DNA of 64,000 nt, taken from Eledone cirrhosa (lineage: Eukaryota). The translations under genes and the position numbers were made by a program. Location: NCBI GenBank assembly GCA_964016885.1, contig OZ024744.1, positions 22,630,001 to 22,694,000 on the forward strand, given 5' to 3'. The notes below the pieces were generated by a model. It made no database searches. It had not been told where the DNA came from and saw nothing but the letters and a program-made list of their open reading frames with translations. This document shows positions 1 to 17,500 of the stretch, in pieces; the first letter of the stretch is position 1; every line of letters begins with the position of its first letter.

Positions 1-1530
1 CAGTAAGGTGCCGACCGCCTCGATTGCGGAGGCCGTCGACACCATTACTGTCACATCATCGGCGTAGGCTGACACTGCTTTCCGCAATCCCGGTTCCAAA
101 GGGATGCCCTGCAACAACTCCAACTTCCGCAGTAGTGGCTCGAGAGTCAACACATACAGAAGGGAGGAGAGAGGGCACCCTTGTCGGATGGACCGCGCGA
201 TTTTGAACGGCTCCGAGAGGTAGCCGTTCACCTTGACCCTAGAGCAGATGCGGCTGCTGTTCATAGCAGTGATCCAGCCCCTGAAAACGGGCCCGAAGCC
301 TGCCGCCGCTAGCACCGCATCCAGGTAACCATGGTCGACCCTATCGAACGCCTTAGATTGATCCAAGTTGATCAGAGCCCCACCAAAGCCGGGTTCGTTC
401 CCAACCCTCTCTATGATGTATCGCATGAGGTGGAGGTTGTCATGGATGGACCTGGACGGGATAGCGCATGTCTGCGCATCTCCCACCAGGTTGCCCACGA
501 CAAGCGCCAACCTCTTTGCTAGCACCTTGGCCAAAATCTGTAACTCTGTATTTAGCAGAGTTATGGGCCTGAAGTTACTTATTTCGTCCCCCTTGTTCTC
601 GTCCTTCCTCACTAGCGTGACTACGCCCTTGGTCACAGTACAGGGAATTCTCCCGTTCTGTTGCCAGTTGCAGTAGACCGCCTCGAGGAGATCGGGGAAC
701 AAGTCCGGCATAGCTAGATATAATTCGTAAGGAAGTCCATCGAGACCCGGGGATTTGCTTTTGCCGCATTGGCCCAGCACGTCCTCTATCTCAGCGGCCG
801 AAATCGGCTCCTCGCAAGACTTCGCCTCCCTGTCCGAGAGGCGCGGCAGGCCGTCGAGGTATGGACCGAAGTCCACGTTTCCAACCGGCTCCCCGCCCCT
901 CCCGAACAGTCGGGCAAAGTGCCTTTGAAAGGCCTCACACATCTGCTTAGGCTCAAGAATCGCCCGTCCATCCAGGTCTCGCAAAGACCGGATGGTGGAT
1001 TTAGTTCCACTGTTGGCCTCTGTCACGCGGGCCCAGCTAACAGCTTTGGCCCCCTCGTTCCCTAGAGCACGTATTTTACTTCGGACAACGCAGCCTTCGT
1101 GCTTCGCGTCGAAAAACTGGCTCAAAGCCGTTCTCGACGCTAGCACTCTGGCCACGTCGCCGCTTCTAATTGCCTCTTCTACTCTATCTATTAGCTCCCT
1201 TTCCTTCCTATTCCTATCCGCAGCTAGCACCTTACTAAATTCAATCGAGACTACTCTAATCTCTCTCTTTAGAGATACCCACCACCTGCTGTTGACGATC
1301 GCTCCAGTCAACCGTTCCTTAACTAACGTACTAATCCGATTCCTGTAGGCTCTACTTGCCGGCAAGGACAAGTTGAGCTTCCAGTAACCGGGGCCCTGTC
1401 TATGCGTTCTATCAAGGTTGACCATGCAGGTCACCAACTTGTGGTCTGAATAGCCAACCATGAGCATTTCTGGACAACTTAAAAAGTCCCTGTCCTTATT
1501 TCTAACTAAAAATTTATCTAGGTACGATCT
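1..1530 (-). mobile_element. L1/Tx1-clade non-LTR retrotransposon ORF2 fragment (end of APE endonuclease plus reverse transcriptase), disrupted and 5'-truncated; continues past window start
   Basis: Manual minus-strand translation gives the endonuclease C-terminus RSYLDKFLV...GYSDHKLV...GPGYWKLN (~1530-1375). RT motifs follow in order: KSPGLDGLPYE (~760-725), NFRPITLLNTELQILAKVLAKRL, LINLDQSKAFDRVDH (~375-330), SIRQGCPLSSLLYVLTLEP (~195-140) and VSAYADDVT (~75-50). No long ORF is present in the track, so the frame is broken. Confidence 0.93.
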
Positions 1531-1534
1531 AATA

Positions 1535-1822
1535 GTTGGTATGACAGGCCTTGACTATTGGAGTTGACTAGAAAAGCTCAAACTTTATTCACTCCAACGT
1601 CACCATAGCGCTACATTATCTGCATCATGTGGAAAATATTCCATCAGCTTTGCCCAAATGTTGTTGGCATCACCTTTAATGTACACCCAAGGCTTGGGCC
1701 CCGTGCTTATCCGCCCACAACAAAATTCGCATCTCATAACAACAATACGGCACAATTAGTACCCTCAATTGGCCCTGCTCTCTTTAACATTACACCAAAA
1801 CACATTAAAATAGAAGCAGACC
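1535..1822 (+). mobile_element. CR1/L2-group LINE ORF2 C-terminal fragment, degenerate
   Basis: Plus-strand translation GMTGLDYWS*LEKLKLYSLQR..ERYIICIMWKI...SIGPALFNITPKHIK matches the 'L.Y..RL..L.L.SL..RR.R ... G..LFN.LP' pattern of CR1-group C-termini. It has one stop and one frameshift, and is cut by the (ACT)n repeat. Confidence 0.7.
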
Positions 1823-1823
1823 T

Positions 1824-2038
1824 TACTACTACTACTACTACTACCACAACAACTACTACTATTACCACAACTACTACTACTATTACCACAACTACTACTA
1901 TTGCTACCACTACTACTAACACTACTACTACCACGACTACGACTACTACCACCGCTACCACCACTACTACTACTACTTCTATCACAACTACTACTAGTGC
2001 TACCACTACTACTACTAGCGCCACCACCATCACCACCA
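1824..2038. repeat. Imperfect (ACT)n/(ACC)n trinucleotide microsatellite
   Basis: Directly visible; produces the poly-T, poly-V and poly-S spurious ORFs. Confidence 0.97.
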
Positions 2039-2789
2039 AAACCTTGCAGTCCAAATAGAGGGTTCATGGGTGTTTTAATGATAGTGGCCCCAGGCGTTAA
2101 TCCAAGAGCTGAACCATTAACTCACCTTATCCACTGATGTAACAAATATTCTATGTAGATACGATCTGGGTGACTCGGTGAGATTTGTTTACGTCCACTA
2201 TAACACATTTGCTATACCAGTTTATACCTGTCAGGTAGTTACATCACTTTCACTGCTTTTCACCTCCTGTGCCATTCAGTTGCAACACTTACCCAGGGAG
2301 ACCGTCCTTTACACAAACTCCAAACCTTTCCTAAACAAATCTATCCCTCCGATGATTTGATCTAGTAAGCACCAGTGATACCGGAGATTTCCGGGACGCA
2401 CGCTCGAGCGCTTCTCCTTAATGCCTAAAAGTTCTAGGAACTATTTGCTAGCCAGTGTGTTTTATACATTTAGAATGTGGTCTCTAAAAGATGATGTCAC
2501 AGACCCGGTAAATTATGTAGCTAATTCGAATGAGTTTGCAACAAAATATTGAACACAAATCTGAAATACAACAATATTACAAATTCACTAATTTATACAG
2601 GATACATAAATTATTACTTAAGCAATTAAGTTGTACAAGTTAAATATTCTCTCCTGATATATAACCCTGAAAGGATAAAGGATAAAGATCCCATAACTCC
2701 TTGTGGAGTCCTAGAGGCACTGTGTCAAACGGCGTGTCTAAGGCACTTTTAAATCTGGTGGAGCCTAATCCTTTCCAGGTTTGAACACA

Positions 2790-2877
2790 ACCGATTTTTT
2801 TTTCTATAGAGGAAGAATCGACCCCAGCAGTAGACTGGTACGTTTTTTATCGACATCGAAAAGATGAAAGGCAAAGT
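2790..2877 (-). mobile_element. SINE fragment with Nin/Deu-like central domain
   Basis: Reverse complement reads ACTTTGCCTTTCATCTTTTCGATGTCGATAAAAAACGTACCAGT, homologous to the copies at 4040-4425. Confidence 0.7.
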
Positions 2878-3274
2878 ATATGGTTGCTGTTGTTATTCTA
2901 TTCATGTGCTCTGTTCAACTTTGGTTTTCTTAATTCTATCTCAGTTGCTTCCCTGGTTTGTCTACCTGTTGAGTCATTTCTTTATTTAGATATTAGTTTA
3001 ATTTCTATTTGTAACCGGTTTAGAAAGTTTAATTTGGTTTAATGAGGGTAATTAGCAGTACGGTACCTGTAAGTTATTAGAAATAATTTGATTTGTTTAA
3101 CTGATCTTATTTATGAGAAAAATAATAGTTATGTTCTTGACATAAGAAAACATTACAGCAATACAATGGAAGGAAACATAATAATATCACTGATGATGTT
3201 ACAGGTGTGGGACGAAGAACTCTGAAAATCTATATTTATATCTATATTTTTAACTGTCTGCCAATCCAACGCCC

Positions 3275-3325
3275 CGGGCTAGTACTTTACTTTATCCACC
3301 CCAAAAGGATAAAACGCAAAATTAA
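3275..3325 (-). mobile_element. Very degenerate fragment of the same SINE domain
   Basis: CTAGTACTTTACTTTATCCACCCCAAAAGGATAAAACGCAAA resembles the reverse complement of TTTGCCTTTCATCCTTxCGGGGTCGATAAAATAAAGTACCAG. Confidence 0.45.
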
Positions 3326-3436
3326 AACATCCATAATAATATATACTAAACAAAGAGTACCTTACAATACTCTACATACGACCAAATTCGAGAACCTCAG
3401 ACAAATATGAAGTACGTCTGCCTATTTATAATTGCC

Positions 3437-3740
3437 TTCTTCTTCTTCTTTGCCCACTTATTTCTGAGAGAGTCATGGGGGAAGAGTCCTCAAACACTCC
3501 CTCCAGTAGGTCCTGTCAGAAGCAATCGTTTCCAACTGATCCGACTGGTTCCCTAAGTGAGACCAGTCAAGCTCATGGATGTTATCCAACCATCTTGTTC
3601 GGGGTCTATCCTTGGGTCTCCTGCAGGCTGGTTTTGCTCGTAAAATCTGTCCATCGATTCCTTCCTGAGACATTCTAACCACATGCCCATAGTATCGGAG
3701 CTGTGATTTCTCAATTCGGGGAAGTAGCGGCTCTACCTGG
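3437..3740 (-). mobile_element. RTE-clade LINE 3' end fragment with (GAA)n tail
   Basis: ORF 3473..3784 contains QLRYYGHVVRM...RRPKDRPRTRWLDNI, the RTE C-terminal R[WY]xGHxxR / GRPxxxW motif. (CTT)n at 3437-3449 marks the 3' tail. Confidence 0.85.
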
Positions 3741-4039
3741 GGTGACTCTCTGATCTCCATTTTTGTTCCTAGAATTAATTTCATTTTATTGTCTGTTATA
3801 CATAAACATATTATGTCAACTATATTTTACAGAAGTTATACAATGGTGGAAACATCACGATCAAAACTGCAAAGTCATTTTCGCGGACAATGGCCAGTGA
3901 CATTGGCGACTATGGTGGAGCTCTTAAATGTAAAAAGTAAAGAACTGGAACAAATACCGTACAAGAATTTCCTTCCATACTCTAAAGATTCTGCTAATTG
4001 TCTGATTTATTGTATTTTGCCATGACTTTACATTTACGT

Positions 4040-4260
4040 GGCGGTGGGTTGGCAGTAATCAGGAGGGCGCCCGACAACAGGCTTTGTGACATAGAGTTAT
4101 GGCCTTTTATCTTCTGACTTCAAATTCCGCCGAGGTTAACTTTGTCATTAATCCTTACAGGGTCGATAAAATAAAGTACCAGTAATGTACTGCGGTTGAT
4201 TTAATCTACTTAACCCTCCGCCCAAATTATTGGTCATGTTCCTAAATCAGAAACCATTAT
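4040..4260 (+). mobile_element. tRNA-derived SINE with Nin/Deu-like domain, near full length
   Basis: Head GGCGGTGGGTTGGCAG, B-box-like TTCAAATTCCGCC, then GAGGTTAACTTTGTCATTAATCCTTACAGGGTCGATAAAATAAAGTACCAGT. Confidence 0.75.
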
Positions 4261-4273
4261 ATATAAGCCTCCT

Positions 4274-4425
4274 CAGTTCAAATCCCGCCGAGGTTAACTT
4301 TGCCTTTCATCCTTACGGGGTCGATAAAATAAAGTACCAGTAATACACTGGAGTTGATTTAATTGCTCCCAACCCCACCTCAAAGAACAAATCGTTAACC
4401 TTGTGCCTAAATAAAAAACATTATT
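4274..4425 (+). mobile_element. Second, 5'-truncated tandem copy of the same SINE
   Basis: GTTCAAATCCCGCCGAGGTTAACTTTGCCTTTCATCCTTACGGGGTCGATAAAATAAAGTACCAGTAA aligns with 4118-4185. Confidence 0.78.
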
Positions 4426-4649
4426 TTCCCATTTACCGGAGTTTTTCATTGGCTTAATAGACCAAACATATATGTTTGTTATATCTTAATCCCTGTACAA
4501 TATTAGATAAACTTTATATCAAAGAATCCACGTGGTTATTTACAGCAAACTAAGAAAGAAAAAAAGTTGTATTTACAAGAACCAAGTGATTATCATTGTT
4601 TCTAAGTGGGATAAGTTTTATGTGCGTTCTTTTAATGGTCTACTCCGTG

Positions 4650-4820
4650 TGAATGCAGAGTTGAACGGATAAGATGTTCGCTTTGCAATCATGAGGACCC
4701 GGTTTCGATCCCATTGAATGACATAATACTTATATATCTTTAGGTCGACGTAGCTTCAGGTTGACACAAGCATTTTCACTGAAATTGAGTAGACGGAAAC
4801 ATTGCTGAAGCCTGTCGGAT
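4650..4820 (+). mobile_element. tRNA-derived SINE of a second family, degenerate
   Basis: tRNA-like head with B-box CCCGGTTTCGATCCC (~4698-4712), followed by GTAGACGGAAAC...GAAGCCTGTCG, which I recall from octopus SINE 3' regions (not verified by search). Confidence 0.55.
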
Positions 4821-5439
4821 GGGCTGAGTCTGTAATTCAAAAATTCAGCATTGTTACATACTGTTTCAGGTTCATTCAGCTTCGTTATAGCATTTAAGAT
4901 ACACGTGTCTGATGATGGATATTTAACCAATTACGTGATAATTCGAGGGTTGAATGTTCAATTGACTACAAAACTAGATGATCATTGTCGAAACTGACGG
5001 AGGATCCTTCACGCACGTGCGTAAGTTTGTGTGTTTGAGTGTAGGCACTTTGTATTTTTAACTGGCTACATTTTAAGTTGGTATGTATTCATAATATTTT
5101 AATGGCTATTTCATTCATTTAAAATGGATTCATTCCAACTCACCACAAATTAAAATAAATAATAATAAAGATAAAAATAAAAATAAAGACAAAAAAAAAT
5201 ATCGTCAATTATTTTTTTATCACCCGTTTGAAAATGTTCTTCTAGTAGAAATGTTTAGCGAATACCGAAGACCGAAGCTCCTACGACCGACCTTAACAAC
5301 AAACCTTATGTCAATGTATCAATCTTACCATTCCTCAAGCACAAACACCCCGCCGATATTTTCTCTTTTATCCCTTCCCCTATTAAAACATTACCCATCC
5401 TTCTTTCTTCCTTTTCTATCAGGGAGCGTGTGTATGTGT

Positions 5440-5545
5440 GTGTGGAGAGAGGGAGAGAGAGCAGCAGCAGCAGCAGCAGCAGCAGCACAGCAATAAACAT
5501 TAATCACGGGATATTCCTTTTCTAGCAGAGAGAGAGAGAGAGCAA
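5440..5545. repeat. (GA)n and (CAG)n microsatellites within a short local duplication
   Basis: (CAG)n at ~5461-5490 and (GA)n at ~5527-5541. CAATAAACATTAATCACGGGATATT occurs at both 5491 and 5551. Confidence 0.9.
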
Positions 5546-6412
5546 CATATCAATAAACATTAATCACGGGATATTGTTTGACACGGACAACAAGCTAGGC
5601 AATTTACTGCAATAATCTGCAACTGAAATTGTCAACAGCACAAGCTGTTAACACCGGCTCGCTGTCAGCACCGCAGTCAACTCAACAAACAGTCACCACC
5701 AGAACAACCACATACGAGGCGGGGGGAGGGGACATTGCGAATAGATTACTTCTACAAACAATCAAAGCAAACATAAATAAATAATTAAATAAGTAAATAA
5801 AATAATTATATAAATAAATAAATAAAATATATCATAAAATAAAATAAAATAAAATAAAAGTTTAAGACCGCAATTTGTTAATACCAGAAACAATCGAGTG
5901 TATAAATACCGAACTCTACTAATAATTGGTTTGAAATGTAACTTATTGTAGAAGTTTTACGATAAACATGTAATTTTTAGCATCGTTGTGAAAATAAACC
6001 AAATTCTTACACCACAGAATTTTAGTTGATCTCTCTACAAGGGCAGAAGATGGAGAATCGTCATGACAAGTTTCTAGATTTATTATATCTCCATCAGAGA
6101 AATATATACATATGAACTATCCACTGGGATATTAGTAGTTTTTAGCTAGCTATTTATAATGAATAAAACTATCAATCGTCTAAACGGTGCATTCTCTGAT
6201 AACATGGTTTACTTAATTCAGTACGATGCCTTACACAGTTTGTTTTTTTTTGTTTTTTTTTAGTTTTTGATGGAATATAAGTTACACCTTAGAAATATAT
6301 ATTTAATCTTGAAAATATATAATTTATATATAGTAAAGTAGTAACATGATTACATGAAGGCTTTTTTATATCTCCGTGGGCATAAAAACTGAAATCAATC
6401 TGAGTAGTTTAT

Positions 6413-6500
6413 AGTCTAGTCCGGAGGTTCTCAAACTTTTGGGGCCACCCGCCCCTGCAGCCACGTAATACCCTCAGCGCCCCCACCCCTATTTCTAGAG
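6413..6500 (+). mobile_element. hAT-Charlie-like non-autonomous DNA transposon end, remnant
   Basis: GTCTAGTC (NTCTAGNN-type target) followed by CGGAGGTTCTCAAACTTTTGGGGCC, resembling the CAGxGGTTCTCAAACT TIR class. No matching opposite TIR is seen. Confidence 0.45.
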
Positions 6501-6853
6501 AGACCTACCGACATGCAAATTGTAAATAATATATAAAAAGGAAAATCGTTAATTTATATATAATAAATAATATAATATATACTATGTATAAATATTATAT
6601 TTATTATATTATTTTATTATATCTATATATAACATGTATCATTTGATATTTGTTATTATATTATATCATCTCTATCGCCCTCTTAGGCCGCAGCGCCGCC
6701 TGATACTTCTCAATATATATATATTTATTAAAATAACAGATTACAGTTTAAGCAAAGAATCGCTGCTTTCATCCTTAACGGGATTTTCTGAAACAATGGA
6801 TATATATCATAAATCATGTCCTTAGAATTATTAGATAAAATATATACCATTTC

Positions 6854-7565
6854 CATCGTGAACGGTTGCCACATATATATCTGTGACTTTATGTATATGT
6901 AAATCTTTATATTTAATAATCTCCCGTTGGGTTGAGATGCAATTGGGCGATATTGTGCTGCGCTTTCTAGCAACCAGCCTACTCGCCGTAAGCAACTAAT
7001 CACATTCTTTCTAACTTGACCACTGCCACGTCACGATTCTTAGCCATTTTTAAAATCTATTTCTGGCGCGATCGTTTTGGAAAAGTAACTGTCCTATTGA
7101 GTTTGTCTCCTGATGAGTTCGATATTCGAGATTTATCCTTAATAGGATATCTCAAAATACGAACGAAACCATGGTAGAGATGTAATTACGGTATGTACAC
7201 GTTTCTTCTAACTTTAAATTTATACCTAATTGTATATGGTTGACGGTATATTTAGTCAATTTCTACATGCTGTTGAAATGTTGGGTAAATACTCTATTGT
7301 GGTTAACCGCGAAGAGGCCACTTTCGGTTATTTATAAAATATTTCTTCATAGGAGCCTTTATTCTTATAGCCTGGTCTAATTGATTTTTTATATGCTTAA
7401 TTATGCTAATTGGGAGAGGAAATTATATATATGTTATCTAATAATTCTAAGGACATGATTTATGATATATTGCTCTGATTATTTAATTTATTAATTCTTC
7501 ATTGAGCCACATCGTGAACGGTTGCCACATATATATCTGTGACTTTATGTATATGTAAATCTTTA

Positions 7566-7571
<6 letters not shown>
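6854..7571 (+). mobile_element. Hammerhead-bearing non-coding unit A (retrozyme or Penelope pLTR-like), 656-bp period with 62-bp terminal direct repeats
   Basis: Identical CATCGTGAACGGTTGCCACAT...AAATCTTTATATTTA at 6854-6915 and 7510-7571, with a hammerhead motif at 7104-7182 and no meaningful ORF. Confidence 0.65.
7104..7182 (+). ncRNA. Type I hammerhead ribozyme with minimal helix III and long helix II
   Basis: TGTCTC-CTGATGA-GTTCG...CGAAC-GAAA-CCATGG-TA-GAGATG. Helix I pairs TGTCTC with GAGATG (two G-U). The core CUGAUGA and GAAA are intact. Helix II is the 48-nt hairpin at 7117-7164. Helix III is the palindrome ACCATGGT. The GUA cleavage triplet ends at 7176. Confidence 0.85.

Positions 7572-7650
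<79 letters not shown>
7571..7650. repeat. Perfect (TA)n microsatellite of about 40 units
   Basis: Directly visible. Confidence 0.98.
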
Positions 7651-7655
<5 letters not shown>

Positions 7656-7664
7656 TATTTATAG

Positions 7665-8158
7665 GTACATACATATATGTGTACAGACGTACAGTAGTAT
7701 GTATATATATGCATACATGCACACATATATATATGTACGTATGGGTTTACCGAACATTTATTTCCATGATCGGTTTGTTTGTAAACAAACAACCCGAATT
7801 ACGCCGTACAGTGCTCGGCAACCATCGGCGCCCTTTTGTTCAATACTGACACAGGAACGATGTACTAGTTTCATGCTTATTAGCTATCATCAGCATCGTA
7901 TACCTTTCTGTCAGATGATTGAAAGTATATACTTTCCTTATGCATATTAACGACTGAGCAGCCTAATTTTCATATCGAGTGAGTAAGTCGGCCGGGCGCA
8001 CAGAAAACGATAAATGGAAAAGAATGAAACGAAATTTCATTTCTCACTCTTGGTACGGCTGATACCTAAATATAAGTACGTATACGTACATACATATATG
8101 TGTACAGACGTACAGTAGTATGTATATATATATATATATACATACATGTACACATATA
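7665..8158 (-). mobile_element. Hammerhead-bearing non-coding unit B (retrozyme-like), 421-bp period with terminal direct repeats
   Basis: GTACATACATATATGTGTACAGACGTACAGTAGTATGTATATATAT begins at both 7665 and 8086. A minus-strand hammerhead motif lies at 7857-7899. Confidence 0.6.
7857..7899 (-). ncRNA. Minimal type I hammerhead ribozyme
   Basis: Minus strand reads ACGATG-CTGATGA-TAGCTAATAAGCAT-GAAA-CTAG-TA-CATCGT. It has a perfect 6-bp helix I, an intact core, palindromic ACTAGT helix III and a GUA triplet. Helix II is short (GCT/AGC) with a non-canonical closing pair. Confidence 0.78.
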
Positions 8159-8508
8159 CACATATACACGAGACGTCCTACACGAGTGAAAGTATAAGGA
8201 AAAAAGATGAAGTCGAAAATGCAACTGGAGTCTTTTTAAGAATATTTATTTGGTTCCTTCTCCGCTATGTACTGGGCAAGCTCGTCAACATTATAAGATG
8301 TCTCACGCAGCAAATCCGAAGACAGAGTGTTTGCGTCTTCCCGGTTTGTTGAAGGTAGGCCATACACCGCCAACGCACTACCGCCCATATCGAGAACAGT
8401 ATCTTCGATTTCAAGTAGCGCCCTGTTGTAAATGAGGTCACTGTATCCGACCTCCATCGATGGGTTTAGCAACAGAGCGTGATGCAGGAAATCTTCAGAC
8501 ATGTAATC

Positions 8509-9880
8509 TTAGTAGCTAAGCCATAAAGAGGCCTGATCACCCAAGTCGCACCATAGGAGTAGAATAACGAAAAGCGATCTTAGTCTTTTAGGAGATTTCA
8601 ACAAAACGCTCTCTGCCATAGTGGCGCCCCATTGTAAATCATCCTCCAAAAGGCCACACCTAAAGCAGGCTTCCCCGAAAGTATCACATAATTCACCGTC
8701 AACAGTTCTTATGTCTCGAAAGCTTTGTGGGCCAAAAACCTCATGGAGGAGAAGGTGTAGGTGAAAACACTCATGCTGGTTGGGAGGTACAGTGTACACT
8801 CTTCCTAGACAACTGTCAAACTTGACACCAGGATGTCCTTCAACATCCTGACCTGACTTCCTACGCACCAAAGTGTTGTTTGACCACACGTTGTAGGACG
8901 GGACCTGAAGATATGAAAGTGTTTTTGCAAATGTGTCAAGTTTGCAAAGCGTAAAAAAACCAGTCAAAGTTGTTTCTTTTGGATTGGCCGCCAAATGAAC
9001 AGCAGTCTGTTCAGTAAAGTAAGCCCGCTGGCCGTTTTCCAAATGAACAGCTAGTTGTATGATGGCGGGGTGCCTTTGGTGAAGTGGAAACCCGAATATC
9101 CGCGAAAAAGCTTCACCACTGCTGATATATCGACCTGCCAAGTGCTCCGAGACCTCGTCCCTGCTATTGTGGTTTTGAAGGCCGAACATGGCAGCGTCAG
9201 AACCCTTGTTAACATATTTACATATGTACTTTATTGACTTCACTAAATGACAGAAGTCCACATTTATATGAGCGTTGACAGTTTTCATCAGAAATGGACA
9301 GTACGGGGCCACCCACCTATTATCAACTTGATGACCCCGTAACGTCATAGTGAATCCACCGTTCTCAGGCCGCCTTCGTCTGTACAGTGGGTATCCGTCG
9401 CCACCGGTCTGGGTCTCTTCAACAAACCTATTTGGGTATCGTTTAGTGCACACATGGTCCTTGTGGCATGAGGAGACCTCTTGAAAACCAGGACCGCATG
9501 GACCGTGCACCATGTGTGCCTTCACAATGTCGTACAGCTGTCGGTCAACAACGGGGTCCGGTATTTCCGCTGCGATGACGTCATCTAGAACTGTAGGGTC
9601 TATCTTGGTGACCAACCAAACCAAAATGTGCGCGTGTGGAAACCCTCTCTTCTGCCACTCAACAGTATACATGTGGCACCTAACAGGCCCGAAAACCTTC
9701 CCTTTTTTATTAGATCAATTAGCTTAGCCACCTTCTGCCTGAAAACCATGGCAATAATATCATGCCGATGGCAATACTGCTGCCCTGGAATAAGTTCCCG
9801 CGAAACATCAACCCACTTGGGGTTACACGTAAACGTGATGAATCGGGGCGCCCATAATGCCGAACGAACGTCATAGCGTC
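8509..9880 (-). pseudogene. Helitron Rep (HUH endonuclease) domain fragment
   Basis: Motif 1 FITFTCNPKW (~9843-9814), motif 2 VEWQKRGFPHAHIL, MVHGPCG, CTKRYP, GYPLYRRR, DNRWVAPY, AHINV, motif 3 KYICKYVNKGSD, LAVHLENGQ and GRVYTV. Confidence 0.95.
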
Positions 9881-9898
9881 CTGTGTTCGCTCGTGCAT

Positions 9899-10541
9899 TT
9901 ACCGCCCCCCACCCCCCGTATAGGTTGAGGGGAGAATGAACATTTTGACGATGTTCCGGGGGTCAGTGTCATTCCTGATGTCTTCACGCAAATGGATGTA
10001 GGAGTCTGAGCGCAGCTGCTTCTGATTCAATTTTATGAAGCACAGTCTCTCCGACTCCATCTTTGCAGCCATGTCAACTGCAAACTGGTGAAACAGTTCC
10101 CGTGACCTGTGCAGGGGGCTAAAATCATTAGGCCTCGTCATGAAGCGATATGAGTACAAAGCCATACATGAAACAGTTTTAGATGTCGCAGCAGTGGACT
10201 CGTTTGGTTTGCGTTGAAGATTGCCGAAATGGTACCCGTCTTCTCCGTATGCAAAAAGAAGGGGATACTGCAGGGCGTCGTATGAACGATGCGTCTCATT
10301 AATACGTCGAAGACCACTGTCACGGCTTAGAAGAACTATGTCTCGCTTATTGTGCTGTTCATCATGGATAACTACGGCCACTTCATTGCAGGAAGGAACG
10401 TTATAACGGCGTGCGTGCTCCCCAGAAGGTCTTTTGTCAGCATCGATGACAATGGTGAAGTTTAGTGAAGGGTTTGTTTCCAATGCGTATTTGAAACTGC
10501 GAATATAACTGTTGTGCTCATGAAGCATGTTTTGAAGACCG
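9899..10541 (-). pseudogene. Helitron RepHel N-terminal conserved region fragment
   Basis: HARRYNVPSCNEVA, YDALQYPLLFAYGEDGY, LFHQFAVD, ESERLCFIKLNQKQLR and ILPSTYTGG. The frame is lost at a G-run near 9905-9917. Confidence 0.92.
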
Positions 10542-10882
10542 AGCAGCAGTAGCAGCAGCATTTCTAGCTAGGCGAGTCGACCTTTGTTCCGGGCCCTCTG
10601 AAGCCCCGGAAGCAGCAGTAGAAGCGTTTCTTCTTTGGAATGACGTATCGCCCGCTCTGAATCGCACATCGCAGCACGTCTCGAGGCGTCGTATGAAGCC
10701 ATCTTGGCTAGGCGTGCGGTGCGTTGTTGAAAACTTTCAGCAGCTCTGAATTCCGCTGAACGTAAGGCGCTCTGTGAAAGTCTTAAAGCAGTTTCCTCGG
10801 GGGACTCGTTTGCTCTAGTCGCTCTCTGCGCCGCCGCTGACGCGGTATGGCGACCGAAGCGACTTCTCTGTTTAGGTGGCAT
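10542..10882 (-). pseudogene. Helitron extreme N-terminus with four 23-aa STPR-like repeats
   Basis: MPPKQRSR..., then RANESPEETALRLSQSALRSAEF / RAAESFQQRTARLAKMASYDASR / RAAMCDSERAIRHSK(frameshift)RNASTAAS / GASEGPEQRSTRLARNAAATAA. A 69-bp DNA period is visible (AGCAGCAGTAG at 10542 and 10611). Confidence 0.7.
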
Positions 10883-11449
10883 TTTATGTGAAAAAGAAAG
10901 GGTGAAAGTTACTTCTACAGCAAAATTGCCTTTGAAAGTATAAGGCTGAAAACTGTCGGCGTTCCGCAGGGGGAAAAAATGGGAGAACGAACGGTAAATA
11001 AATAACTCACAGTTTGTTGAAAGCGCGCTTCTGTCAGCAATTTGAAGTTGTTTGGCCAAAAATCCCTATTTGTTTTTTTTTCACTCAATAAACATGTAAA
11101 TATGTTATACACAAAATGTAATTGTGTGTGAGTTGGATGATAGATGTTTTAAAAAAAGAGTTTAAGCGTATATAAGAGAAGGTTGCAGCATGTATTTTTT
11201 TTTTTCGATTTTTAAGGGGAGTAGAGAGAGGTATTCAGATTGTATTAGAGGGTAAAAGCGTCATGTATTTAGTTTTATCGATTATTTCCGTAATTGTGGG
11301 TGATTTTAAAATAAATAAATAGTCGTTGACCTAAGTTAGACCATTTACAACATTCCTACAGACTTTGAGTCGAATTGGTTTGAAATTGTGCAAATGTAAA
11401 TAATTTTTTTTTTAATGTTAACTTTAAGGTAACACATTTTCCATTTGTG

Positions 11450-11820
11450 TATGTTTATATATATATACATACAGAAGTAAGTGTTGGTGTGAGTGTGGGT
11501 GTGTGTGCGTGTATGTATGTATTATGTGTGTCCCTCCCCCTCTCTCTCTATGTGTCGCAAATTTCGTGACCTCGTAGAAATTATGTTATGCTAATTTGAA
11601 CATGTTGTGTCATGATGAATGTCCATGCATATATAGTCATACACACACTTACACAAGCACAAACACAACACAAACAGGCGACACACACATATATACATAC
11701 ACACACGCACTCTCACACAGATACATGCACACATATACCCCCACACGCACACATACACACACATATACAAGCACGCGTACACATACACAGTCTATAATCA
11801 TATAAATAGATTTACACACA
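11450..11820. repeat. Degenerate (TG)n / (CA)n low-complexity tracts
   Basis: TG-rich at 11450-11530 and CA-rich at 11640-11790; these generate the spurious H/T and V/C ORFs. Confidence 0.9.
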
Positions 11821-11995
11821 TTGAAAGGTAATGACGGATGCAGTGGAAAGAAAAGGGATAAAACACAGTCATAATAGCCAGCGTGTGTTTGTCGTTTACG
11901 GCTTGGTGGAACCCATCCCTTTCCAGATCAAAACACAGCCATATTTATATATTTGTTTTTTTTATGATGTTTAACAGAAACCCGTTCCCATAAAC

Positions 11996-12640
11996 TTATT
12001 CTTCTTCTTAGGGTCGTAGGGGCAGAGTCCTCAAACACACGTTCCGTCGGGTCATGTTTAGAAGCAACCGTCTCTAATTTATCCAACTGGATCCCCAAGT
12101 GAGACCAGCTGAGCTAATGGATTTTATCCAACCACCTTGCTCCAGGTCTATCCTTGGGTATCCTACCTGTTTCGCCCGTAAAATCTGTCCAGCGATTCTT
12201 CCCTGAGAGATTCTAACCACATTGCCATAGTATAAGAGCTGTGATCTCTCAATTCGGAGAAGGAGCGGCTGTATTACTGCGCCAGCTTTTTCAATTCTGG
12301 TACTTAATTCAGCCTCCTGCCTTCCATCACTCGTGAAGACGGCCCCGAGATACTTGAACATCTCCACCTGCTTCAGTGGAACTCCATTTACATGTAGCGT
12401 GCACTACACAGGCTTCCTTGAGAGGACGAGTGTCTCAGTTTTCTTAACACTGATTTTCATCCCAGCCGTGCGAGTACAAGTCGAATATCATCTTCTGTCG
12501 AGTTAAGTAACACCATGTCGACTGCAAATTCCAGCCGACTGATTTAACACCCGCTAGTCATGATACCACTTCCAACCCAGCTGTGCATATCAATCCTGTT
12601 CATGAAAATAATGAAAAGGAGAGTTGACAGTATGCAATAT
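11996..12640 (-). mobile_element. RTE-clade LINE fragment (RT C-terminal half to 3' end), same family as 3437-3740
   Basis: Minus-strand CILSTLLFIIFMNRID, degenerate catalytic FAVDMVLL, GMKISVKKTETLVL, LKQVEMFKYLGAVF and QLLYYGNVVRI. A (CTT)n tail lies at ~12000, and the nucleotide sequence aligns with 3478-3735. Confidence 0.88.
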
Positions 12641-12864
12641 TAACTGTGATGAAAAAAACTAAACAATCTAGCCGCCATAGTACTCACTGAATAACGTTAC
12701 GTGGCGGAGATTTGACTACTGTGTCGTGATCGGCATCTAGCCGTATACAGGCTGCCTTCATTGACACCTAGAAAATCTTGTGGAGGTGAACGGCGATTAT
12801 TCGATCTGAGCTTGACTGTTGCTGCTTCTCTGCACTTCTAACTATTGTACATAACAACACTTTG

Positions 12865-13160
12865 TTTCTAATGGAGGTTACACTACCTTTCTGAGAAAGA
12901 CTAAATATTCCTTGTCAGGCATATCCTACTCTTAATATCCCAAAAGTAATTGCACGACTGATTGAACGACGTAGGTTTGCTGGTCATTGCTTCCGAACCA
13001 AATTTGAGATGGTATCAGACCACTTGTTCTGGAAGATCTCCTTTATCCGAAAGCTCAGATAACAGGATACCATAGCAACAGACACTGGAATTGACAAGGA
13101 AGAACTACAAACGTTCTTGAGGAAACTGAGACTGCTGGCGTGATGTTGTTTGCTGTCTCA
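12865..13160 (+). mobile_element. RTE-like LINE 3' fragment of a different family
   Basis: Plus-strand GGYTTFLRK..., IERRRFAGHCFRTKFEMVSDHLFW (from ~12961) and DTGIDKEELQTF...CWRDVV, across frameshifts. Confidence 0.7.
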
Positions 13161-13337
13161 CCTAAGAGACACAGGAATTCTCATGGAAGTCCTATAGACC
13201 TTGATAGGAACTGAGACTCTTAGCGACAAGTTGTGATTGCTGACTCGTCTAGGGTGATAGAATAGATGCCAGAAAGTTCAAATAGCAGAATACAATAGTA
13301 AGAGACACCGGAATTGACAGGGAAGATCTATAGCCAT

Positions 13338-14570
13338 TGTGTGGTGTGGTGTAGTGTGGAGTAGTGTATGGTGTGGTGTGGAGTGGTGTATGGTGTGTGC
13401 TGTGTAGTGTGGAGTAGTGTATGGTGTGGTGTGGAGTGGTGTATGGTGTGTGCTGTGTAGTGTGGTGTGGTCTGCTGTAGTGTAGTGTGTGGTGTGTGGT
13501 ATATGATGTGGTGTGGTGTGTGGTGTATGGTGTGGTGTGTGGTGTAGTGTGGTGTGTTGTGTGGTGTGGTGTAGTGTGGTGTGATGTGTGGTGTAGTGTG
13601 GTGTGGTGTGTGGTGTGTGGTATGGTGTGGTGTAGTGTTGTGTGTGATGTGGTGTGTTGTGTGGGTGTGGTGTAGTGTGGTGTGGTGTGTGTTGTGTCGT
13701 CGTGTGGTGTGGGGTGGTGTGGGTGGTGTGGGGTGTGTAGTATGGTGTGTTGTGTGGTGTGGTGTGGTGTGTGGTGTGTGGTGTGGTGTAGTGTAGTGTG
13801 GTATGTGATGTGGTGTGGTGTGTGGTGTTGTGTATGGTGTGGTGTGTGATGTGATGTGTGGTGTGTGGTGTGGTGTGGCGTGGTGTGTGGAGTGGTGTGG
13901 TGTGTGGAGTGTGGTGTGGTGTGTGGTGTGTTGTGTGATGTGTGGTGTGGGGTGTGTTGTGTGGAATTGGGTGTAGTGTGGTGGGGTTGGTGTGGTTTGG
14001 TGTAATGTAGTGTAGTGTGGTGTAGTGTGGTGTAATGGGGTGTAGTGTGGTGTGATGTAGTGTGGTGTGGTGTAGTGTAGTATAGTGTGTTGTGGTGTGG
14101 CGTAGTGTAGTGTAGCGTAGTGTAGTGTGGTGTAGTGGGGTGTGGTGTAGTGTAGTGTAGTATAGTGTGATGTGGTGTCGTGTGCGTGGTGTTAGGTGTG
14201 GTGTCGTGTGCGTGGTGTTAGGTGTGGTGTAGTGTGATGTGGGGTGGGGTGTGATGTGATGAGGTGTGGTGTGGTGTGTTGCAGTGTGGTGTAGTCTGGT
14301 GTAGTCTGGTGTAGTGTGGTGTAGTGTGGTGTAGTGTGGTGTGGGGTGTGGTGTGGTGTGGTGTAGTGTATTGCGGCGTGGTGTGGTGTGGTGTAGTGTG
14401 GTGTAGTGTGGTATAGTGTGGTGTGGTGTGGTGTAGTGTGGTGTAGTGTGGTGTAGTGTAGTGTAGTGTGATTTGGTTTGGTGCAGTGTTGTGTGTTGTA
14501 GTGTAGTGTGGTGTGGTGTAGTATAGTGAGGAATGGTGTGGTGTGTATGTTGTGTATGTATGTTTGTGTG
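13338..14570. repeat. G/T-rich degenerate pentamer repeat (GTGTG/GTAGT)n of about 1.2 kb
   Basis: Directly visible; accounts for the 440-aa His/Thr ORF 13278..14600. Confidence 0.97.
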
Positions 14571-17500
14571 TATATCCAGCGAAATGAACCTGCTAGCCAT
14601 ACTCTAAATTCCGGCAGTCTAAAAGAGACTGCCCACCTTCGACAAGCCTAACAGAGACTGTCCACTTTCAACAAACCTAACGGAGACTGCCCACTTTCGA
14701 CGTACTTAACAGAGACTGCCCAGCTTCGTCAAGCCAATCAGAGACTGCCCTCTTTCGACAAACCTAACAGAAACTCCCCACCTTCAACAAGCCTAACAGA
14801 GACTTCCAACTTTCGACAGAACTAAAAGAGACTGCCCACTTTCGACATACCTAACAGAGACTGCCCACCTTTGACAAACGTAACAGAGACTGGCCACCGT
14901 CGACAAACTCAACAGAGACTGCCCACAGTCGACAGGCCTAACAGAGACTGACCACTTTCGACAAATCTTACAGAGACAGCCCACCTATGGCAAACTAAAC
15001 AGGGACTAACTACCTTCGACAAGGCTAGCAATGATTGCCCACCTTCGAAAGCCTAACAGAGACTGCCCACATTTGACAAACGTAACAGATAAAGCCACCT
15101 TCGACAAACTTAAAACAGACTGCCCAACGTCGACGAGCCTAACAGAAACTGCCCCCCCCCCCCCTCTTCTACAAGGCTAATACTGACTGCCCACCTCGAC
15201 AGGGCTAACAGAGGCTCCCAACCTACGAGAAGCCTAACAGAGTCTGCCCACCTTCGAAAAACCTAACAGAGACAGCCCACTTTCGACAAGCCGAACAGAG
15301 ACTGCCCACCTTAGACAAACCTAACAGATACTGCCCACTTTCGACAAGCCTAACAGAGATTTCCCGCCGTTGACAATTCTAAGAGAGACTGCCCATCTTC
15401 GACAAACCTAACAGATACTGCTCACCTTCGACAAGCCTAACAGAGACTTCCCACCTTCGATGAGTCTAACAGAGACTGCCCATTTTCACAAACTTAACAG
15501 AGACTGCCGACCTACGACAAACCTAACAGAGACTGCCCACCTTCGACAAGCCTAACAGAGATTGCCCGCCTGCGATAAGACTAACAGAGACTGTCCAGCT
15601 TCGACAAGCCTAGCAGAGACTGCACACCTTGGACAGGCCTAACAGAGACTGCCCACTTTCGACAAACATAACAGAGACTGCCCACCGTCGACAAACCTAA
15701 CAGAGACTGCCCAACTTCGACAAGTCTAACAGTGACTGCCCACCTTCGACAAACCTAACAGAAACTGCCAACTTTCGACAAACCTGACGGAGACTGTCCA
15801 CCTTCGACAAGCCTAACAGAGAGCCCGCCTTCGACAAGTCTAACAGAGACTACCCACCTTCGACAAGCCTAACAGGGACTGACCACCTTCGACAAACCTA
15901 ACAGAGACTGCCCAACTTTGACAACTCTAACAGAGACTGCCAACCTTCGACAGACCTTACAGAGACTGCCTATCTTCAATAAACCTAACAGAGACTGACC
16001 AACTTAGAAAGGTTTAACGGAGACTGCCCACCTTCGACAAACCTGACAGAGACTGCCCAACTTCGACAAACCTGACGAAGACTGCCAACCTTCGACAAGC
16101 CTGACAGAGACAGCCCACCTACAACAAGTCTAACAGAGACTGTCTATCTCTACACACCTAACAGAGACTGCCCATCTTCGACAAGCATAACAGAGACTAC
16201 CCAGCTTCGAAAAACCTAACAGAGACTGCCCATTTTCGAACAACCTAAATGAGAGTGCCGACTTTTGACAAACCTATCAGAGACTGCCCACCTTCAACAA
16301 ACCTAACAGATACTGCCAACATTCGACAAACCTAAGTGAGACTGCCCACCTTCGACAAGCCTAACAGAGACTGCCCGAGTTAGACAAGTCTAACAGCGAC
16401 AGCCCACCTTCGACAAACCTAACAGGGACTCCACACTTTCGACCAACCTAACTGAGAGTGCCCATATTTGACAAACCTAACAGAGACTGCCCAACTTCAA
16501 AAAGCCTAGGAGAGATTGCCCACCTTCGATAAGCCTAATAAAGACTGCCCACTTTCGACAAACCTGACGGAGACTGTCCACCTTCGACAAGTCTAACAGC
16601 GACTGCGCACCTTCGACAAGCCTAACAGAGACTGCCCACGTTTGACAAACCTAACAGTGACTGCCCACCGTCGTGAAACCTGACGGAGAATGCCCAACTC
16701 CGACAAGGCTATCAGAGACTCCCCAACTTCGACAAGTCTAACATGACTGTCCACCTTCGACAAGCCTAACAGAGACTACCCACCTTCGACAAACCTAACA
16801 GAGACTGCCAACCTTCAAGAAACCTAACAGCGGCTGCCCACATTCGAAAAACCTAAAAGCGACTGCCCACCTTCGACAATTCTAATAGAGACTGCCCACC
16901 TTCGACAGAGCTAACAGAGACTGCCCACCTTCGACAAGCCTAACAGATACTGCCAACCTTCAACAAATCTAAGAGAGACTGCCCACCCGCGACTAACATA
17001 ACAGAGACTGCCCATGTTCGGCAAAAATAACAGAGTATCCCCATCTTCAACAAACCTAACAAAGACTGCCCATTTTCGACAAACCTAACAGAGACTTCCC
17101 ATCTTCGACAAGCCTAATAGAGACTCGCCGCCTTCGACAAGTCTAACAGAGACTGCCTACTTGCGACAAACCTAACAGAGACTGCCCACCTTCGACAAAT
17201 CTAACAGAGACTGCCCACTTTCGACAAAACTAACAGAGACTGCCAAACTTCGACAAACCTAACAGAGACTTCTCATCATCGACAAACCTAACAGAAACTG
17301 CCGACCTTCGATAAGCCTAACTGAGACTGCCCACCTTCGACAAGCATATCAGAGTCTGCTCAACTTCGACAAGTCTAACAGAGGCTGCCCAACTTCGACA
17401 AGCCTAACAGAGACTGCCCACCTTCAACAAACCTAACTGAGACTGACCAGCTTAGAAAAGTCTAACGAAGACTGACAACTTTCGACCAACCTAAGTGAGA

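Follow-up and report, generated by a model that had tools for sequence, protein, structure and literature searches.

Two short non-coding units, each with one type I hammerhead motif and a partial direct repeat, were found to converge on a single (TA)n tract in the 64-kb stretch of Eledone cirrhosa DNA analysed here (64,000 nt; hereafter the window). On balance, units A and B probably represent two unrelated elements of a non-autonomous, retrozyme-like kind, each present as a single copy slightly longer than one monomer and inserted by the enzymes of Penelope-like elements (PLEs). Insertion by PLE enzymes is in itself highly probable when this reading and one in which the units are truncated PLEs are taken together. 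The coordinates of the units and of the neighbouring elements are given in Table 1.

Table 1. Features annotated at the locus and in its surroundings.
Feature	Position	Strand	Remarks
LINE reverse-transcriptase frame	1-1554	-	Open, 518 aa, runs off the window; RVT_1; 62% identical to an Argonauta hians protein (best named match)
Inverted 53-nt copy of unit A 7418-7470	6802..6854	-	Adjoins the 5' end of the forward copy; 50/53 identical
Unit A upstream repeat, pseudo-LTR-like	6854..6915	+	Last 62 nt of the preceding monomer; identity 62/62
Unit A monomer	6916..7571	+	656 nt (period 656), 34% GC, non-coding (Pfam), 3' end at (TA)n
Type I hammerhead A	7104..7182	+	Predicted cut between 7176 and 7177 (GUA)
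(TA)n tract	7570..7651	.	82 nt by sequence; meeting point of both 3' ends; likely target
Unit B monomer	7652..8066	-	Period 421, 38% GC, non-coding, 3' end at (TA)n; last ~90 nt repeated upstream
Type I hammerhead B	7857..7899	-	Predicted cut between 7863 and 7862 (GUA)
Unit B upstream repeat	8067..8167	-	TA/CA-rich, 46-nt exact core; 83/93 overall
Decayed Helitron	8240-11065	-	Carries STPR repeats plus a Rep domain; best named match is an Octopus sinensis protein (83% identity)

Anatomy of the two units

The RNA sense of each unit was taken from the sense of its hammerhead. By this sense, units A (forward strand) and B (reverse strand) lie tail to tail and both 3' ends point into the (TA)n tract, bearing out the convergence that had been proposed in the original prediction. 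The periods and hammerhead strands proposed there were likewise recovered, and each unit carried a complete type I core: in unit A, positions 6854-6915 and 7510-7571 were identical (62/62 nt, period 656), and in unit B (period 421) the longest exact direct repeat was 46 nt, starting at 7665, with 83/93 identical positions plus an 8-nt (TA) length difference over the whole repeat (7646-7738 vs. 8067-8167). Both hammerheads were of type I (not type III) and lay outside the direct repeats. Both 3' ends were situated in the microsatellite, and a target duplication was not discernible. A tail of 30-40 nt of the PLE type was absent from A, and B had a 14-nt divergent 3' end.

The start of unit A had previously been placed at 6854. 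It had to be moved to approximately 6802, because positions 6802-6854 proved to be an inverted copy of 7418-7470 that had been overlooked (50/53 identical; 0/300 shuffles reached this score in a self-comparison). The left junction of the inverted piece showed ATATAT microhomology with the flank, the left flank of A being (AT)4. On the periodic template, the piece lay upstream of the forward start of A, at -92 to -40, and the end closer to that start adjoined the left flank. This layout is what would be predicted by twin priming, in which a single RNA is primed from either end of the target break, as described for L1 (PMC2246262); under this model, the template would have measured at least 810 nt, or 1.23 monomers at a period of 656. 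In a shuffle-controlled comparison, no significant match to a 5' inverted piece was found for unit B.

These junctions also bear on whether the units could be strays of hammerhead satellite arrays that were moved as DNA, by extrachromosomal circles, break repair or Helitron capture, with no reverse transcription. The locus lies beside a 49-kb satellite, B adjoins a truncated Helitron whose homology ends at ~8240-8254, and a permuted, terminally repeated monomer might equally derive from a DNA circle. RNA-templated insertion, however, predicts both the orientation of the two 3' ends towards (TA)n and the position of the inversion at the 5' end of A with twin-priming geometry, and B had no significant similarity to its right flank. 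Movement as DNA was consequently considered improbable.

Neither unit appeared to code for protein, as had been anticipated: across 12/12 reading frames of A and B, no Pfam match was better than E 0.17. Reverse transcriptase (RT) and GIY-YIG open reading frames (ORFs) were absent from these 12 frames, the units were not filed as autonomous PLEs, and no ORF remnant was detected upstream of either hammerhead (Pfam, six frames per unit). The two units were also unrelated in sequence, in line with the earlier observation, since 43/300 and 93/300 shuffles scored as well as the comparisons between them. Within the 64-kb window, no further copy of either unit was found. The predicted self-pairing of the circular monomer was pronounced for B (z -4.5; 0/80 shuffles as good), decreasing to z -1.7 without the TA-rich end (4/60), and was unremarkable for A (z -1.1; 5/40 shuffles as good).

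Hammerhead motifs

When both strands of the entire window were scanned for the hammerhead core with its stems, two motifs were returned, one per unit and on opposite strands. Both sequences contained the elements tested for a type I core, namely CUGANGA, GAAA, NUH and three helices, open at stem I. Stem I of hammerhead A (7104-7109/7177-7182) consisted of 6 bp including 2 G-U pairs and was followed by CUGAUGA (7110-7116), then by a 48-nt stem II region that begins with a G-C pair, by GAA and by a palindrome (ACCAUGGU) as stem III. In the predicted circular monomer of A, the pair probability was ~0.9 for stem II and ~0.15 for stem I, which was thus mostly unformed. Stem I of hammerhead B (7899-7894/7862-7857) consisted of 6 Watson-Crick pairs, with CUGAUGA at 7893-7887, a core of the form CUGAUGA-U...U-GAAA, a 3-bp stem II preceded at its base by U-U and an A-A mismatch, and the palindrome ACUAGU as stem III. 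Stem I of B was extended by three more helices over ~7837-7923 (z -2.5; 1/200 shuffles folds as well) and had pair probabilities of 0.53-0.91 in the predicted circular monomer.

The G10.1-C11.1 pair and an intact stem II were present in A, whereas B carried U-U plus the A-A mismatch. The CUGANGA-U...U-GAA core of B was counted by eye in 14/25 Hydra-clade families in File S2 of Craig et al. (2021; PMC8557442), so that U-U corresponds to a known variant. The A-A mismatch could be explained by one substitution; because it lies in stem II, this copy of B may be dead. The stem III palindromes can pair between two copies, with predicted energies of -11.2 and -4.8 kcal/mol, and a dimer form has been proposed for PLE hammerheads (Cervera and de la Peña, 2014; PMC4209133).

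Across the window, no Rfam match reached the gathering score. The Rfam hammerhead models, which had been suggested as a check, could be aligned to both units at scores far below their curated cut-offs: Hammerhead_1 scored 14.1 bits against A (cut-off 34), and Hammerhead_HH9 scored 18.4 bits against B (cut-off 52). Together with the low complexity of the repeat of B and a descriptor (stem I of 6 bp, stem II of 3 bp, palindromic stem III) written after the motifs had been seen, these scores leave some room for the hammerheads being chance matches and the repeats being local duplications or tiny LTR elements (TRIM-like). The shuffle counts flatter a post hoc descriptor; with this in mind, it was matched once in 2/20,000 and twice in 0/20,000 dinucleotide shuffles of 6854-8158, and in 0/2,000 shuffles of 1-14618. 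Both motifs, moreover, fit published PLE hammerhead layouts, and inspection of the repeats revealed no signals of LTR retrozymes or TRIMs (TG...CA ends, primer-binding site, polypurine tract or target-site duplication). We therefore regard chance matches as very improbable.

Probable insertion by Penelope-like element enzymes

Among the traits that Craig et al. (2021; PMC8557442) list for PLE insertions are truncation at the 5' end, partially tandem copies, an inverted copy adjoining the 5' end and a bias towards microsatellites. Partial tandems (pseudo-LTRs, pLTRs) were present here as the 62-nt and ~93-nt direct repeats of the 3' ends, and an inverted truncated copy was present at the 5' end of A (6802-6854) and absent from B. 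With all four traits represented at the locus, insertion by PLE enzymes was well supported, and the 5' inverted piece of A strengthened the link to Penelope-type elements. In File S1 of the same study, (TA)n is given as the target for 26/27 Hydra-clade families, including Hydra-1_Obim of Octopus bimaculoides, and for 5/5 cephalopod Naiads; how PLEs form tandem and inverted ends is described there as an open question. According to Goubert et al. (2022; PMC8969392), a pLTR arises when a truncated tandem copy joins a full-length copy. Following that account, 656 and 421 nt would be full element lengths and the elements would be non-autonomous.

Several known PLE groups resemble the units in part. 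Hydra-clade elements such as Hydra-1_Obim share the (TA)n target, the location of the hammerhead close to the 3' end and the palindromic form of stem III; the U-U core variant of B also occurs in this clade, and a 5' inverted copy like that of A was reported for Penelope-13_HM. The units differ from Hydra-1_Obim in lacking an RT/GIY-YIG ORF and in sequence, as judged by eye. The distance from cut site to 3' end is <100 nt in Hydra-1_Obim compared to 211 nt in B and 395 nt in A, and stem III is mostly 9 nt in the Hydra clade compared to 6 nt (B) and 8 nt (A) here. The cephalopod Naiads (Naiad_Obim, Naiad_Ovul) share the (TA)n target and the partial tandem and inverted structures and are a possible source of the enzymes; they are without canonical hammerheads, and their 3' ends are unlike those of A or B by eye. 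The flag 'HHR_half_core' on Naiad_Ovul initially pointed to unit A and was rejected on comparison of the 3' ends by eye. Derivatives of Chlamys PLEs such as MRC1 are likewise non-coding, with pLTRs and head-to-tail insertions, but come from green algae and mostly lack hammerheads, as described in PMC8557442. In the consensus file of Craig et al. and among octopus Naiad and Hydra 3' ends, no sequence tie of A or B to a named autonomous PLE partner was found.

At a single locus, an identical picture would be produced if A and B were what is left of two autonomous PLE families after 5' truncation (the 3' end, comprising the 3' UTR and its hammerhead), with the repeats arising from template jumps from one truncated copy to another, the lengths of 656 and 421 nt being accidental and no small RNA element being involved. 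Truncation at the 5' end affects most PLE insertions, which also form partial tandems and inversions (PMC8557442). In the Hydra clade, the hammerhead is placed within the 3' UTR close to the 3' end, and the core of B is of that type. Cervera and de la Peña (2014; PMC4209133) considered truncated PLEs the source of most single minimal hammerheads and also reported hammerhead pairs that were separated by 100-700 bp and lay on opposite strands. Upstream of each hammerhead, the stretch of 170-190 nt could derive from the 3' UTR of a PLE that codes for protein. This explanation nevertheless requires that two independent insertions each truncated just short of the ORF and gained a tandem piece, and no trace of an ORF was found in either unit (Pfam, 12 frames). 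Four hammerhead 15-mers of A and B gave 0 matches in the supplements of PMC8557442 and PMC13282606; in the consensus file of Craig et al. (PMC8557442), a match could have been concealed by line wrapping. By eye, Hydra-1_Obim, Naiad_Obim and Naiad_Ovul had 3' ends unlike A or B. Truncation of autonomous PLEs was thus judged a possible but less probable origin of the units.

Probable retrozyme-like origin

Retrozymes are described as producing multimeric transcripts that self-cleave and form circles, which are then reverse transcribed by PLEs into more-than-unit copies (Cervera and de la Peña, 2020; PMC7229834). A similar sequence of multimers, self-cleavage, circles and PLE reverse transcription was given by Li et al. 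(2026; 10.64898/2026.07.22.740005) for retrozymes of 51-972 bp, many of them monomers, that are related to pLTRs; in that study, 1/9 predicted Xenopus retrozymes cleaved in vitro. Like metazoan non-LTR retrozymes, A and B are short, non-coding and below 50% GC, with a type I hammerhead, a short palindromic stem III and no LTR signals. Their lengths fall inside the range of Li et al., who recognise monomers as a form. The units differ from retrozymes in their single hammerhead per copy, with no tandem array seen at the locus. The 656 nt of A exceed the 170-400 nt reported for expressed retrozyme circles, stem II of hammerhead A is far longer than the canonical 4 bp, and A is not strongly self-paired.

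If the units are retrozyme-like copies, a master locus elsewhere would be transcribed as head-to-tail multimers. The hammerheads, each with a palindromic stem III too weak alone, would cut as dimers, and the resulting monomers may be circularised. A (TA)n-targeting PLE endonuclease/RT (e.g., a Hydra-clade or Naiad protein) would then nick the TA tract and prime on the TA-rich 3' portion of the RNA, and reverse transcription passing beyond one monomer would leave the direct repeat. In A, the second target strand would prime at ATATAT, 40 nt upstream of the stop of the first cDNA, giving rise to the inverted piece. B was probably the earlier insertion, since its repeat is more diverged, and A would subsequently have landed in the TA tract at the 3' end of B. 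A tendency of PLEs to insert beside earlier copies has been noted in a review (PMC6765202).

The original prediction had proposed retro-copies of candidate new retrozyme-like families. The anatomy fits more-than-monomer copies inserted in TA; the existence of new retrozyme families was not established by copies with one hammerhead each. The 'active retrozyme' rule of Li et al. requires two consecutive hammerhead units, and with one per unit this locus falls outside it. Retrozyme membership is thus unproven for A and B, which resemble retrozyme monomers and were not filed as members. More tentatively, they could be the first cephalopod retrozyme families, expressed as RNA circles of ~656 and 421 nt and dependent for their movement on PLEs that target (TA)n. 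In that doubtful case, the hammerhead of A, with its 48-nt stem II, would escape published descriptors, and the inverted piece would record two-ended priming on multimeric or circular RNA.

Published work already covers the class, the types of hammerhead and the preference for TA; the families A and B are probably undescribed. No description of a retrozyme from an octopus or other cephalopod was found in the searched literature, to which most subscription papers did not belong. According to the supplement of PMC13282606, PLEs cover 6.83% of the O. vulgaris genome and fall into 190 families; with so many curated families, A and B may already be catalogued as 'Penelope' or 'unknown'.

The retrozyme-like origin, if true, would extend hammerhead retrozymes to cephalopods and add cases tying retrozymes to PLE enzymes, a link that has so far been argued from co-occurrence and from sequence similarity in Xenopus (PMC7229834; 10.64898/2026.07.22.740005). 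Short non-coding copies such as A allow PLE junctions to be read cleanly, and many copies of A, if they exist, would constitute a natural data set for the PLE insertion mechanism. The known classes of mobile element and ribozyme are unchanged by A and B.

Database searches and genomic surroundings

Searches with the hammerhead motifs of A and B returned two metagenome contigs for the A motif and, among viral contigs, two matches for A and none for B. All matches to A were rejected as chance 20-mers, the similarity being confined to 21-22 nt at the pattern. In the TA/CA-rich ends, matches to Rfam microRNA models were low-complexity and far below threshold, and no tRNA was found in 1-15000. Of the 11 sequencing runs listed, 8 contained part of the stretch and none contained half of it; in three runs from one sample, 42-46% of 134 words were present, and no RNA run was among those listed as containing it.

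The best named protein matches of the LINE and the Helitron, in Argonauta hians and Octopus sinensis, indicate a probable octopod host. The Helitron remnant (8240-11065) is broken by stops and frameshifts and ends before the helicase, ~75-85 nt from unit B. The intervening ~70 nt (8168-8240) resemble neither element. A 13-nt exact match in the same orientation lies near both ends of the remnant (8187-8199 and 10933-10945; 3/300 shuffles as good). Its first 10 nt recur in unit B at 7920-7929; this match, picked post hoc, may be due to chance or to a subterminal motif.

A 29-bp satellite with ~1,700 copies occupies 14619-64000 and is directly preceded by a degenerate (GTGTG)n array of 1.2 kb (13339-14545). 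Long exact internal duplications occur in the satellite at offsets of 13,273, 13,707, ~15,650-15,740, ~4,000 and 1,101 nt, reflecting either recent higher-order structure or an assembly effect. Two copies of an apparent LINE 3' end (3469-3735 and 12010-12273) were 81% identical. A short dispersed repeat, possibly a SINE, was present as a tandem pair (4111-4205/4269-4363; 87%), with inverted partial copies at 2834-2877 and 3279-3325.
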